From NCBI GenBank assembly GCA_965205505.1, contig CBDBHB010000009.1, positions 2,208,001-2,272,000 of the forward strand: a stretch of DNA of 64,000 bases, given 5' to 3'. Shown here in pieces: positions 39,199 to 43,860 of this stretch. Numbering within the stretch: the first letter of the stretch is position 1; the number at the start of each line of letters is the position of its first letter. The translations under genes and the position numbers were made by a program. The notes under the pieces are model-generated. The model saw only the letters and a list, made by a program, of their open reading frames with translations, ran no database searches and was not told the origin of the DNA. The stretch is from Acidobacteriota bacterium. Lineage in GTDB: Bacteria; Acidobacteriota; UBA890; WLXD01.

Positions 39199-41427
39199 AT
39201 GTTGTCGACCGACCGACGTAAGTCCAACTCTAGTCTGCCACGCACGGCCTTCCGTGGTTGCCTGGCTGCGGCAATGCTGTTGTCGGCATTACCCGGACGA
39301 GGCGAGGTACCAGGGGCGAACGGCCCACGCGGTTTCCAGGCCCCATGGGGTGCCGCCATCGAGCGCGAGCTGCGCCTCGCGGCCATTCCCGACACCGACC
39401 GCTTGCGCACCATGGCGCATCGACTTGGCAGTGAGGCAAGGGTAGCGGGCACGCCAGCTGCAGCCCGCGCCGCCGGCGAGATCGCCGACCTCATGGCCGG
39501 CTGGGGCCTCGAGGTCTCGGTGCATGAGTACGACGTATTGTTGCCGCACGCGCTGTCGGCGCGAGTGGATCGCCTCTCGCCGCTGCCGCTGACGCTGGGG
39601 CTCGAGGAGGAACCGCTCCCCGAGGACACGGCCAGCGGTGTGAGCCAATATCCAGCAGTGGCGGCGTACTCGGCCGCTGGTGATGTCGAGGCAGGCGTGG
39701 TCTACGCCAACTATGGGAGAGAGGCTGACTTCGCCGCGCTGCGGGCGCTACGTGTCGACACTGTCGGCAAGATCATCGTGATGCGATACGGCCAGGTGTT
39801 TCGCGGCGCCAAGGTTCACAATGCCGAGGCGGCCGGCGCGGCAGCCGTATTGCTGTACTCAGATCCGTTGGACGACGGCTACTTCCGCGGCGACGTGTAT
39901 CCGATCGGTCCGTTCCGGCCGTGGACAGGTGTGCAGCGCGGCTCCGTGCGCACTGGACCACCGGGTGATCCGAACACGCCGGGCCGGCCCGCGACCGCTG
40001 GCGCCGCAGTAGCCGGCCAGCCGACACCTGCCACGCCCCTTACGTCGATCCCGGTCGTCGCTCTGGGCTACGGGTCGGCGGCGGAGCTGCTGCGACATCT
40101 GGTCGGCACCGAGGTCCCGGCGGGCTGGCAGGGGGCGCTGCCCTTCCGCTATCACGTCGGCGGCGCCGGTGTTCGGGCGCGCGTGCTCGTCGAGCTCGAT
40201 GAAACCTCGGTGCGGAGAATCCGCAACGTCGTGGGGACGCTTCGCGGACGCGAGCGGCCACAGGAGTGGGTAATCCTCGGCGCGCATTACGACTCCTGGA
40301 CGGTTGGCGCGGTGGACAATCTTTCGGGCACGGTGGCGATGCTGGAGGCTGCACGGGCGCTCGCAAAGCTGAGCGCCGCCGGCTGGCCGCCGCGTCGCAG
40401 CATCTTGTTCGCCGCGTGGGACGCCGAGGAGTGGGGCTTGATCGGTTCCACCGAATGGACCGAGGCGCATGCGGACCAGCTTCGCAGCTCCGCGGTCGCG
40501 TACATCAACCTCGACGGAGTCGTTGGTGGTCCCTACTTCTCCGCCACCGCATCGCCTTCTTTGCGCACGCTCATCCGCTCTGCGACGCGAGTAGTCGCGG
40601 ACCCGACGTTACCGACCACCAGCATCTACGACTCTTGGCGCCGGCGTGCGTCTATGTTGCCCAGCGGTGAGCCTCGGGTGCCACTACCGGCGGGTGGCTC
40701 CGACGACGCGACGTTCGCGGCTGTGCTCGGCGTGCCAACCGTCGGGATCGGATTCTCGGGAAGCTCGGGGATATACCACTCTGCCTACGACACTCACGCG
40801 TTCGTGGACCGATTCGGCGATCCTGGCTATCGTCAGCACCGCGCCGTAGCCGCCCTTGCCGCGGTCCTCTGTGGGCGGCTGGCCAGCGCAGACGTGCTGC
40901 CGTTCGACTACCGTGACCAGGCGGCAGAGCTGGCGACGGCGATGGGCAGCGTCGATGCTGCTATCGCCGGGCCCGGGGGAAATGCCCGTAGCGCCGGTAC
41001 CGAGCTCGTTTGGCGGGCTCTCGGCAGCTTGGCGGCGGCCGCCGGCGAGCTAGAGGCCAATACACGCCAGGTGCTGCAGCGAGCATCGGCCGGCGCGGGG
41101 CCGGTAGGATTGCAGCGGGTTAACGATCACTTGCTACGGGTCGAGAGGGCGTTTACCCGGCCTGGCGGACTCTCGGCACGCCCTTGGTTCAAAAACATAT
41201 TCTATGCTCCCTCTGGCGGCGATCTGTATGCTGCCGAGCTGTTACCTGGGGTTCAGCGCGCGCTCCGCCGTGACGATGATGGAGCGCTCGCCAGGGAGCT
41301 CGACGATTTGGCGTCATCGATTCGTGCCGCCGCAGTCGAGCTCGTGGCGTCGGCGGTGAGCCTGCGAGCTGCTGCTGATGCGCGCGTTGCCGCGAACTTG
41401 ATCCCCGGGCAGGCCTCCACTCAGTAG
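39199..41427 (+). CDS. M28 peptidase, glutamate carboxypeptidase II-like
   Basis: YANYG PA domain, GAHYDSW, GAVDN, WDAEEWG, YHSAYD and a TfR-dimer-like tail. Confidence 0.9.
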   Translation: MLSTDRRKSNSSLPRTAFRGCLAAAMLLSALPGRGEVPGANGPRGFQAPWGAAIERELRLAAIPDTDRLRTMAHRLGSEARVAGTPAAARAAGEIADLMAGWGLEVSVHEYDVLLPHALSARVDRLSPLPLTLGLEEEPLPEDTASGVSQYPAVAAYSAAGDVEAGVVYANYGREADFAALRALRVDTVGKIIVMRYGQVFRGAKVHNAEAAGAAAVLLYSDPLDDGYFRGDVYPIGPFRPWTGVQRGSVRTGPPGDPNTPGRPATAGAAVAGQPTPATPLTSIPVVALGYGSAAELLRHLVGTEVPAGWQGALPFRYHVGGAGVRARVLVELDETSVRRIRNVVGTLRGRERPQEWVILGAHYDSWTVGAVDNLSGTVAMLEAARALAKLSAAGWPPRRSILFAAWDAEEWGLIGSTEWTEAHADQLRSSAVAYINLDGVVGGPYFSATASPSLRTLIRSATRVVADPTLPTTSIYDSWRRRASMLPSGEPRVPLPAGGSDDATFAAVLGVPTVGIGFSGSSGIYHSAYDTHAFVDRFGDPGYRQHRAVAALAAVLCGRLASADVLPFDYRDQAAELATAMGSVDAAIAGPGGNARSAGTELVWRALGSLAAAAGELEANTRQVLQRASAGAGPVGLQRVNDHLLRVERAFTRPGGLSARPWFKNIFYAPSGGDLYAAELLPGVQRALRRDDDGALARELDDLASSIRAAAVELVASAVSLRAAADARVAANLIPGQASTQ

Positions 41428-41435
41428 TGGTCAAC

Positions 41436-41729
41436 GAAAGACGGAACGGGCGATCCCCACGAACAGCCTCCACGCAGTACGGCCGTTGGCACCGGCCAAT
41501 CGGGCTCGGAACGAGGTCTGCCCCTTTCGCCAAGTTCACACCGGCCCGCGCGTGGCTTCGGAAACCCGACCAGTAAGCCTCCCGTCCGATGTGCAGTCGG
41601 GGCTGCGCCGCACATCGGTGTTACCGGCGCCCTGACGGACGAGCCATGTTGCGAAGCGGTATCGCCTGATTGTCGTAGCCGGACACCGCAGGCGCGCGCC
41701 GCGCGGCCATGAGGATCGCCCGAACCGCC
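41436..41729 (-). ncRNA. Candidate ~290-nt structured non-coding RNA of unrecognised family
   Basis: Own promoter, a long 5'/3' closing stem and at least four internal helices. No credible ORF. Confidence 0.65.
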
Positions 41730-41733
41730 CCTG

Positions 41734-41761
41734 ATTATGGCCGCGTGGCCGCGCTTGTCAA
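41734..41761 (-). promoter_or_regulatory. sigma70 promoter for the candidate ncRNA
   Basis: TTGACA(41761-41756)-16 bp-CATAAT(41739-41734). Confidence 0.7.
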
Positions 41762-41842
41762 CCGGATGCTGCGCGGCGTTGTTCCGGGCCGCCGGATCCC
41801 GAAAGCGCCTTTGGTAAGGGGCTCTGTGGGCCGGTCGCCGCC

Positions 41843-41871
41843 TTGAGCTTTGCCTCATTTCCGGATATGAT
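41843..41871 (+). promoter_or_regulatory. Probable carD promoter
   Basis: TTGAGC-17 bp-TATGAT. Confidence 0.45.
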
Positions 41872-41924
41872 GTCAACTGCCGCCCAGTCCGCAGCAACCT
41901 ACCTAACAACACCGGGAGAGCCCT

Positions 41925-42458
41925 TTGCGCTTTGAAGTCGGCGACCATGTCGTCTATCCGAACCATGGCGTGGGGATTATCGAGGACGTCAAGCGGACCC
42001 AAATCGCGGGGCTCGATCAAGACTTCTACCATCTCCGGCTCTTCGCCAACGAAACCACGGTGATGGTGCCGGTTGGCAACTCCAAGGCGGTCGGGCTACG
42101 AAAGATCTTCGGTAAGACGCAGATCAGAAGGCTATTCAAGCATCTGCGCGACCCCGACTTCGAGACACATAGCAACTGGAAGGGCCGGTACAAGGAGAAC
42201 GCCGAGAAAATGCGCTCGGGTCATCTCTTTGAGATGGCGGACGTTCTCAAGAACCTACAGCACCTGACGCAGCGCAAGGCGCTCTCCTATCGCGAGAAGC
42301 GCATGTACGATCAGGCCAAGCATCTGATCATCTCCGAGATCGCCATGGTGCAGGGGCGTTCAGAGGAGATCGTGCAACCGGACGTCGAGGCGGCCCTCGA
42401 TGATTGTATCGAGGCGCGCAAGCAGTCCGGCGACCACGATCGCGCCAAGGCTTCCTGA
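41925..42458 (+). CDS. carD: CarD family transcriptional regulator
   Basis: FEVGDHVVYPNHGVG, VGLR and NWKGRYKEN. Confidence 0.92.
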   Translation: MRFEVGDHVVYPNHGVGIIEDVKRTQIAGLDQDFYHLRLFANETTVMVPVGNSKAVGLRKIFGKTQIRRLFKHLRDPDFETHSNWKGRYKENAEKMRSGHLFEMADVLKNLQHLTQRKALSYREKRMYDQAKHLIISEIAMVQGRSEEIVQPDVEAALDDCIEARKQSGDHDRAKAS

Positions 42459-42482
42459 GTCAGGCTGGCACGCGCACGTCTC

Positions 42483-42518
42483 GCTCCGGGCGACCGCCGG
42501 TCTCCCGGAGCTTTTTTT
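42483..42518 (+). terminator. Rho-independent terminator
   Basis: GCTCCGGG...CCCGGAGC stem followed by T7. Confidence 0.85.
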
Positions 42519-42583
42519 GTGCCGACAAGCAGCATCTCGTTACCTGCTAGGCTTGCGCACCCATTGACGCACCGGACAGGCAA

Positions 42584-43860
42584 ATGAGACGGCTCTCGCT
42601 GCCTACACAGATCGCTATCGGCATTCTCGTCGGCATTCTCGTCGGCGCGTTGTTCGCCGAGGCCGCCACGATGCTCAGGCCGATCGGCGATCTTTTCCTG
42701 CGCTTGATACGGCTAGTCGTCGTGCCGTTGGTGTTTTCCTCGCTGCTGGTTGGTACCGCTACCGTCGGTGATCCGAAGAAGCTCGGACGAATCGGCGGCA
42801 AGACCATGGCGTACTACCTGGCCACGACGGCCATCGCGATCACTATCGGGCTCCTGATTGCCAACATCGTTCAGCCAGGAGCTGGGATCGACGTCCAGGC
42901 CCAGGAGGAGCTGCTAGCCAACTTCGCGAGCCAGGCGGAGGGCTCGGCGGAGAATCTGCGGCAGCGCCCGAGTGTGATCGACACGTTGCTCCGGATCGTG
43001 CCGACCAACCGATCGAGTCGCTCGCCGCCGGCAACATGCTGCAGATCATCTTCTTCGCCATTCTCTTCGGCGTGGCCCTGACGCTCGTTCCCAAGAGGTC
43101 GCACCGGGAGTCGGTGCTCGTGTTCTTCGACGGTATCAGCGAGGCGATGATCCAGATCGTGCACATCATCATGCGCCTGGCGCCCATCGGGGTTCTGGCG
43201 TTGATCGCCGCAGCGGTGGGGCAGTTCGGGCTCGATATCCTGCGCATTCTGGCGCTGTACACACTCTGTGTCGTGGTCGGGCTGGGGCTGCACGTGGGGC
43301 TGATCTACTGCAGCGCCGTCAAATGGCTCGGCAAGATTCCGATCAAGCGCTTCTTCGCCGGCATCCGGCCGGCGCAGCTGGTGGCGTTCTCAACGTCGTC
43401 CAGCAGCGCCGCGCTGCCGGTGACGATGGACTGCACGGTTACCAAGTTGGGGGTGTCGGAGCAGGTCGCCGCCTTCGTGCTGCCCCTCGGTGCCACGGTC
43501 AACATGGACGGCACGGCACTCTATCAGGGGGTGGCGACGGTGTTCATCGCCCAGGTCTACGGCATTGAGCTCAGCATCGGAGGGCAGCTGACCATCGTGC
43601 TGATGGCCACGATCGCCTCCATCGGCGCTGCCGGCGTGCCGGGCGTGGGCATGATCACCCTGGCGATGGTGCTGGAGCAGCTCGGGCTGCCGCTCGAGGG
43701 CATCGCGCTGATTCTCGGCGTGGACCGCATCGTCGACATGCTGCGGACCGCGACCAACGTCACTGGCGACGCGTCAGCCGCAGTCGTGGTGGCTGCCTCC
43801 GAGGGGCAGATCTGGTACGACGAGGAGAACGACGAAGCGGCGGGCGCTGGCTTCGATTAG
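42584..43860 (+). pseudogene. Dicarboxylate/amino acid:cation symporter (GltP-like) with a 1-nt frameshift near 43010
   Basis: IVPTN|xIESLAAGNMLQIIFF junction, with AFSTSSSSAALP and GATVNMDG motifs. Could be a sequencing error. Confidence 0.85.

Follow-up and report, generated by a model that had tools for sequence, protein, structure and literature searches.

The DNA between an M28-type peptidase gene and carD in this member of the Acidobacteriota very probably encodes an independently transcribed, abundant, and stable noncoding RNA of ~294 nt on the minus strand. With the same confidence, we regard this RNA as an enlarged member, specific to the family designated f1, of a previously undescribed group of RNAs that occurs in a single bacterial class. 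The class, represented in our collection by 26 genomes in families f1 and f2, comprises bacteria of soil and sea that have not been cultivated and for which assembled genomes are the sole source. Unless a genome and contig are named, coordinates refer to the window, i.e., the whole 64,000-nt stretch of DNA that was analysed; the genome it comes from is designated G000. The original prediction of an RNA gene at this position was largely right, and the gene is real; the link to CarD that it drew is not supported.

Promoter, extent, and transcription of the RNA gene

The predicted promoter, TTGACA-16-CATAAT, was recovered by a promoter scan on the minus strand (41761..41734), where it matches the consensus at 11 of 12 positions. 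Two promoter-like sites were found in the 901-base region scanned (41200-42100), compared with 0.1 expected from shuffles. The -35 hexamer is invariant also in the RNA genes inspected in the sister family, f2, while the -10 site of relatives reads ATAATC, AATGAT, ATTAAT, or AATAAT at the same place and is A/T-rich throughout. At the other end of the gene, the U-run that follows the closing stem is conserved, with five to seven U in other genera and five to eight in the short relatives described below. No local hairpin with a U-run was found by a terminator scan of the locus, because the closing stem is long-range. The ends of the RNA were placed by promoter spacing (5') and by the U-rich run (3'), with a precision of ~10 nt, and R1, a covariance model of the RNA, matches 41435-41731 over its full length (290.8 bits).

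Transcript evidence, which the original prediction had proposed to seek, came from Logan contigs of four metatranscriptome runs belonging to two studies. These covered 41446-41720, 41457-41720, 41456-41713, and 41470-41719, all at 100% identity; such contigs are strandless and their ends inexact (three of the ends carried loose letters), and RNA libraries can hold DNA. Depth over the RNA gene was 95-105 and that of the flanks 0-5: the remainder of 41000-42600, which served as a silent control, had no cover except for one contig of depth 4.7 at 41000-41103. This contrast between gene and flanks fits a discrete, abundant transcript. The region does not appear to be coding. Relatives differ by indels of 1, 2, and 4 nt in the alignment of the RNA gene, and thus a reading frame is not kept; a 203-codon minus-strand ORF over the RNA region had no Pfam match. 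The claim of a stable, standalone noncoding RNA is therefore well supported by the conserved promoter, the U-rich end, the frame-breaking indels, the RNA-library contigs confined to the locus, and the covariation presented below. The features of the locus are collected in Table 1.

Table 1. Positions of the RNA gene, its promoter, its predicted structural elements, and the flanking genes in the window
Feature	Position	Strand	Evidence or remark
M28/PA/TFR-dimer peptidase gene	39199-41427	+	convergent with the RNA gene
U-rich tail UUUCGUUG	41432..41439	minus	directly after the closing stem; likely transcript end
RNA gene (~294 nt)	41436..41729	minus	R1 match and RNA-library contigs
Closing stem H1, 3' strand GGGGAUCGCCCG	41447..41458	minus	strand conserved in 183-nt and 108-nt relatives
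Bulge UUCGU (5 nt) between H1 and H3	41459..41463	minus	conserved; tentative pseudoknot with 41585-41581
H3, 3' strand GGCUG	41464..41468	minus	preceded by conserved GGAGG motif
Helix 4, 3' strand	41497..41505	minus	pairs with 41672-41664
Hairpin 10, GGGG-CAGA-CCUC	41513..41524	minus	followed by conserved CGUUC
Helix 7, CCGGUAA (41627-41621) with UUACUGG (41576-41570)	41570..41627	minus	encloses hairpin 8 and invariant CGGGAGGCUUAC
Hairpin 8	41586..41618	minus	most conserved stretch; second internal helix of the original prediction
Hairpin 6	41628..41641	minus	covariation
Helix 4, 5' strand (long-range)	41664..41672	minus	pairs with 41505-41497
H3, 5' strand UGGCC	41705..41709	minus	model structure, 13 sequences
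Closing stem H1, 5' strand CGGGCGAUCCUC	41711..41722	minus	12 pairs, 13/13 sequences; part of handle
-10 hexamer CATAAT (16-nt spacer)	41734..41739	minus	promoter scan
-35 hexamer TTGACA	41756..41761	minus	promoter scan; invariant in 9/9 aligned relatives
carD	41925-42458	+	CarD_TRCF_RID and CarD_C domains; divergent from the RNA gene

Secondary structure

When folded as a 296-nt minus-strand sequence, the RNA reached -151.2 kcal/mol, a value that only three of 200 dinucleotide shuffles equalled (z = -2.2), whereas the plus strand folded no better than its shuffles (z = -0.2). RNAalifold, applied to an independent MAFFT alignment of nine sequences, returned 75 pairs, 24 of which were compensatory. 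Additional sequences were sought with a pattern scan of metagenomes, which yielded seven stretches; four matched R1 in full, three of these being new sequences, and two of the seven did not match the model. In the resulting alignment of 13 sequences, 90.3% of the cells were paired, and 27 of the 78 modelled pairs had changed on both sides compared with 15.1 +/- 2.2 after shuffling (none of 500 shuffles reached the observed count); this count used the model structure plus one bulge pairing, on an alignment that was fitted to the model and is therefore biased in its favour. Slid controls on the same alignment gave 36-48% paired cells and 4-12 pairs changed on both sides.

The pairing of the two ends that had been predicted was present in both the minimum-free-energy and the centroid folds, and its 12-bp core, H1 (41722-41711 with 41458-41447), carries compensatory changes at two positions (alignment columns 11/297 and 20/288). 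Outer pairs supplement this core before the U-rich tail begins. The proposed continuation of the stem, GCGCGG/CUGCGU, is absent from the consensus; the 5-bp helix UGGCC/GGCUG (H3) stands there instead, with 98.5% of its cells paired, no both-side changes, and a counterpart that is invariant in the 183-nt relatives. Four internal helices had also been predicted. One, 41610-18/41586-94, is kept in relatives (89.7% of cells paired). The other three (41682-89/41656-63, 41563-69/41500-06, and 41493-97/41481-85) are only 58-67% paired and look genus-specific, and 41563-69/41500-06 shares its 3' strand with the covarying helix 41672-41664/41505-41497.

The latter, helix 4, shows both-side changes in seven of its nine pairs, with 77.8% of cells paired. 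Among the remaining elements, helix 7 is paired in all cells, and four of its seven pairs have changed on both sides; hairpin 8, with 12 pairs (92.9% of cells paired, three both-side changes), is the segment best kept in BLAST comparisons across genera. One column pair of hairpin 6 (99/106) is CG in six sequences, UA in five, and UG in two. Hairpin 10 is 80.8% paired, and its sole type of change is from G-U to G-C. The well-supported elements of the predicted structure are H1, helix 4, helix 5, hairpin 6, helix 7, and hairpin 8.

The bulge between H1 and H3 could pair with the interior of the RNA (41463-41459 with 41585-41581; alignment columns 282-286 with 153-157), with 96.9% of cells paired and two pairs changed on both sides. 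Another partner, at columns 94-100, fits about as well, and we therefore call this pseudoknot tentative. The interior of the 294-nt RNA may accordingly be modelled as a branched, possibly pseudoknotted core. Two further pairings were considered and rejected. On visual inspection, compensatory changes seemed to indicate a further helix that closes off the stretch from H3 to helix 4, but this helix failed a duplex control, with -16.6 kcal/mol for cognate and -15.5 +/- 3.9 kcal/mol for non-cognate duplexes. The pairing of the two GGAGGCU motifs that RNAalifold proposed for the 13 sequences partly clashes with the well-covarying helix 7, so that only the 5-bp bulge pairing was retained.

Comparison with known RNA families

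No described family accounts for the RNA. A search of the window against the 4227 families of Rfam 15 at gathering score, also among the proposed tests, found only three tRNAs, located elsewhere in the window, and relaxing the threshold to E up to 10 for 41300-41950 added only two chance microRNA matches. Chance matches of this sort (MIR918, mir-1905, XIST repeat, CC3513, etc.) were all that appeared in the window, and likewise in the short relatives and at the zapA-rny loci discussed later, and they were set aside. ARAGORN agreed with the original prediction that the RNA is neither a tRNA nor a tmRNA. Likewise, RNase P and SRP RNA had been dismissed correctly: the genome's own genes for RNase P RNA, SRP RNA, and tmRNA lie elsewhere, and hence the 294-nt RNA is none of these. 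The RNAs 6S-flavo, Acido-1, and Acido-Lenti-1 are listed as submitted to Rfam (PMC2864571), and none was matched. Searches of the literature on Acidobacteria 6S, structured noncoding RNA, and 6S synteny, supplementary files aside, turned up no description of the RNA. We classify it as a new family within the familiar category of structured bacterial RNAs that are abundant, stand alone, and probably exert their effect via a protein.

A family of RNAs with a common handle

BLAST against 61 related genomes found the RNA stretch in eight of the 10 other f1 genomes. With R1, which was built from nine copies, the RNA was detected in 10 of 11 f1 genomes, G000 included; the single miss, G008, is a genome only 71% complete. 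R1 also matched, end to end, RNAs of ~183 nt in the sister family f2. A second model, R2, recovered short relatives in all 15 f2 genomes, usually two 183-nt types (a and b) together with a third form of 108 nt. The genes of these f2 RNAs have an A-rich stretch, TTGACA, a 17-nt spacer, a TAnnnT-like -10 site, and the same 5' and 3' ends as the long RNA. Types a and b are rods (53 and 56 pairs, of which 17 and 20 are compensatory) with small internal loops, predicted to be 3x3 and 6-7x3 nt, that are flanked by covarying helices. Both sizes occur in the f1 genome G005, where the long RNA adjoins carD and a 183-nt copy lies at another site.

A model-based alignment of the 294-nt and the short RNAs indicated that they share their ends only (5', ~33 nt; 3', ~45 nt). 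These ends form what we call the handle: the closing stem, a conserved bulge with UCG on the 3' side, the 5-bp helix, and an unpaired GGGAGG. Members of the family thus have in common a strong sigma-70-type promoter, the handle, and a U-rich tail directly after the closing stem. Their interiors differ, comprising ~50 nt in the 108-nt form, a rod in both 183-nt types, and ~215 nt in the 294-nt RNA.

Searches of G000 with R1, with a fixed pattern, and with a script combining promoter, end pairing, and U-run revealed no other member of the family; the only other match of the script is a tRNA gene, and the fixed pattern also misses the 294-nt RNA itself, which has TGGAGG at the motif. The short forms (183 and 108 nt) have no Rfam match, and Rfam excluded the idea that the 108-nt relatives are SRP RNA. 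Outside the class, the 115 other genomes of the phylum sample yielded two weak matches. Two partial matches, L044 and L066, lie in apparent coding sequence and were taken as chance. Public sequences labelled Acidobacteriota or Acidobacteria bacterium carry short RNAs as well. A degenerate pattern scan of public contigs returned at least 117 stretches, and R2 found 18 matches in 17 of the 80 loci listed. Among the loci listed, 12 matches scored 144-173 bits, one was a truncated copy, and five were weak; of the weak ones, the first is a long-type RNA's 3' handle, another mirrors a strong match on the opposite strand, and the remaining three stand in other groups.

Two small f2 genomes, L072 (G015:C11, 1501-1699) and L064 (G025:C59, 1324-1483), carry an altered 183-nt type-a gene. 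Unrelated sequence takes the place of its promoter and 5' half, with the 3' half, U-tail, and downstream flank retained, and these copies are therefore probably disrupted.

Genomic context

As had been predicted, the RNA gene is divergent from carD. It lies between the M28 peptidase gene and carD in all nine f1 loci aligned, and this adjacency had been read as a hint of a role at RNA polymerase. Beyond f1 that hint fails. In the f2 genome G011, the type a, b, and c RNA genes adjoin genes for an SNF-family symporter, an HtrA-like protease with citrate synthase, and homoserine dehydrogenase, and carD is at least 1.9 Mb from all three short RNA genes in this one genome where both could be placed. 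Conversely, R1 found nothing related adjoining carD at four f2 loci or at the second carD copy of G005. The adjacency is local synteny of family f1 and, being confined to f1, lends no support to a link with RNA polymerase.

Some additional features of these loci were recorded. G005 has two carD-like genes (G005:C2:59829-60329 and G005:C5:1587187-1587687) whose products are 72% and 49% identical to the CarD encoded in the window, and the RNA adjoins the closer one. Downstream of carD in the window, a sodium:dicarboxylate symporter (Pfam SDF) gene at 42584-43860 (+) is broken into a pair of ORFs that overlap, one at 42584-43081 (profile positions 2-125) and the other at 43036-43860 (profile positions 135-386), which points to a frameshift, a pseudogene, or an assembly error. 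In the same-genus genome G004, the M28 peptidase homologue (L002, G004:C15, 1877-3403) aligns as residues 177-548 plus 621-743 and may be interrupted.

6S RNA in the class and the phylum

The Rfam model of 6S RNA (RF00013) matched none of the 26 genomes of the class and 79 of the 111 other genomes of the phylum sample. This model detects 6S in only five of 14 control genomes, and its silence is therefore weak evidence of 6S loss. Gene order provided a second approach, since canonical 6S was found between zapA and rny in all four phylum loci scanned (of 12 6S loci). In G000, zapA and rny are neighbours separated by a 197-nt gap (L216, G000:C9:2139300-2141700, 1544-1740; outside the window). Rfam matched nothing in this gap, which also lacks a promoter and a fold signal (z = -0.24) and is conserved within the genus only. 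The empty site, together with the silence of RF00013, suggests that the usual 6S is gone or changed beyond recognition. In many other bacteria, 6S is followed by a 5-formyltetrahydrofolate cyclo-ligase gene, a link mentioned in PMC9130861; the whole G000 genome had no Pfam match for this enzyme (PF01812).

The RNA described here is not itself a 6S RNA of the usual form. RF00013 matched neither the 294-nt RNA nor its 183-nt relatives, whether at the gathering threshold or with the E-value limit relaxed to 10. Canonical 6S is a rod of ~160-200 nt with a large central bubble, whereas the 294-nt RNA is longer and branched and the loops of the 183-nt rods are 7 nt or smaller; as the helices around these small loops covary, the large central bubble is not seen. 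Nor does the 294-nt RNA lie between zapA and rny. Conservation in the handle family falls on the closing stem rather than on the center. 6S associates with the sigma-70 holoenzyme and serves as the template for short product RNAs, and some genomes have two copies, 6S-1 and 6S-2. The resemblance of the handle family to 6S (SsrS) lies in an abundant stand-alone RNA with paired 5' and 3' ends and in the 183-nt rods of f2, of which there are sometimes two per genome. A 6S/Ms1-like role, as originally suggested, is still a viable hypothesis, now because the whole class lacks a recognisable 6S; those defining features of 6S that could be examined are absent.

Possible functions of the RNA

As our leading reading, although one less likely than not, we tentatively postulate that the RNA is an RNA polymerase-binding functional replacement for the canonical 6S, which the class seems to have lost. 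It would act in trans as a protein-binding RNA, with RNA polymerase as the leading candidate partner, and would replace 6S as Ms1 and CoRP do in actinobacterial lineages without 6S. Abundant, unrelated RNA polymerase-binding RNAs occur in lineages without 6S (PMC9130861; PMC11077062), and the handle family is the visible candidate for such an RNA here. This reading is favoured by (i) the distribution of 6S and the empty zapA-rny site of G000, presented above; (ii) the sizes of the family members, 183 nt and ~294 nt, which match 6S and Ms1, respectively; and (iii) the absence from G000 of Pfam matches to CsrA, Ro/TROVE, and Hfq, which removes three other common partners of RNA. The complementary distribution of the RNA and 6S concerns a single lineage, however, and so counts as one event. 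Further points stand against the reading. The same handle is found on a 108-nt member, and a length of <150 nt is regarded as insufficient for an RNA to work like 6S or Ms1 (PMC9130861). What is conserved is the closing handle and what varies is the interior, the reverse of 6S; the 294-nt RNA has a branched interior, no rod, and no RF00013 match; and two small f2 genomes have a 183-nt copy whose 5' half is replaced.

Ms1 is among the closest known systems. It binds the RNA polymerase core. According to PMC9130861, it is an abundant RNA of ~300 nt that occurs in Actinobacteria without 6S and shows conserved synteny with a HAD hydrolase gene. Our RNA, at ~294 nt, is similarly long, abundant in RNA libraries (depth 95-105 compared with 0-4.7 in the flanks), and found in a class without a 6S match. 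The two were compared by description only, and they differ in host (Acidobacteriota) and in neighbours (the M28 peptidase gene and carD, with no HAD hydrolase). The Corynebacterium RNA CoRP, likewise compared by description only, differs in its size (516 nt), its cleavage into two fragments, and its location between tRNA genes. CoRP nevertheless is a lineage-specific, structured RNA polymerase-binding RNA in a group without 6S or Ms1 (PMC11077062) and thus a precedent for replacement by an unrelated RNA. A more specific version of the proposal, which we consider rather unlikely as a whole, is that the class replaced the near-universal 6S by an unrelated, modular family of polymerase-binding RNAs in which the handle docks on the polymerase, interchangeable interiors of 50-215 nt modulate the outcome, and the 294-nt RNA has acquired a newly evolved pseudoknotted domain.

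RNA polymerase and some other handle-binding partner are about equally likely. The handle could bind a different protein, with the variable interior as payload, so that the RNA would serve as a ribonucleoprotein scaffold or decoy; this is possible, if somewhat unlikely. Y RNAs, which combine a conserved Ro-binding stem with variable loops, follow this logic, and the handle family resembles them in having a conserved terminal stem with a bulge as its common module. Consistent with such a role, the handle is the only part common to the 108-, 183-, and 294-nt forms, it contains invariant unpaired or bulged bases (GGGAGG and UCG), and the gene neighbourhoods of the members differ, as expected for RNAs that act in trans. 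On the other hand, transcript stability and termination could be reason enough for retaining the handle, the family shows no consistent linkage to any protein gene, and a partner candidate is lacking. A Pfam search of G000 (96% complete) found no match to Ro/TROVE (PF05731), CsrA (PF02599), or Hfq, which speaks against these three common RNA partners; this sets the RNA apart from the Y RNAs, to which Rfam also gave no match in the window, and from sponges of the CsrB/RsmZ type.

A role in base pairing, either as a small regulatory RNA or as a Shine-Dalgarno mimic whose unpaired GGAGG would meet the CCUCC of the 16S rRNA 3' end or of mRNAs, is improbable. The motif GGGAGG/GGAGG is indeed invariant, occurs twice in the 294-nt RNA (41583-41578 and 41471-41466), and recurs about four times along the 3' strand in type a (183 nt). 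Yet the predicted structure ties up part of the copy at 41583-41578, typical base-pairing small RNAs are far shorter and less structured than this RNA, and G000 has, as noted, no Hfq match. More improbable again is a biochemistry of the RNA's own, i.e., catalysis, ligand binding, or self-assembly. Its core is branched, with several helices that covary, single-stranded bases that are invariant, and possibly a pseudoknot, and so has the kind of order usual in ribozymes, riboswitches, and large noncoding RNA classes of unknown function; against this, the core is found in one bacterial family only (13 known sequences), the relatives manage without it, and the gene context includes nothing related to a ligand or a mobile element. 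Finally, a cis-acting carD element (a leader, an antisense RNA, or a by-product of a divergent promoter) is very unlikely in spite of the conserved adjacency in f1, as the RNA lies on the strand opposite to that of a carD leader or riboswitch, is separated from the carD start by ~195 nt with no overlap, has a promoter, an end, and a minus-strand-specific fold signal of its own, and has f2 relatives located elsewhere while the f2 carD loci lack a related RNA.

Significance

Few large, well-ordered bacterial RNAs are without an assigned family, and time and again new biology has emerged once one of them was explained. The smaller relatives isolate the module that all members have in common and thereby offer a natural dissection of handle and interior. 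If the more specific version of the proposal, a modular family of polymerase-binding RNAs in place of 6S, is true, the handle family would join Ms1 and CoRP as the third solution to have arisen independently, with no earlier case beyond the Actinobacteria. A lineage without a recognisable 6S raises the testable question of what stands in for it, and for a class known only from assembled genomes, the RNA is useful as a marker for both annotation and expression.
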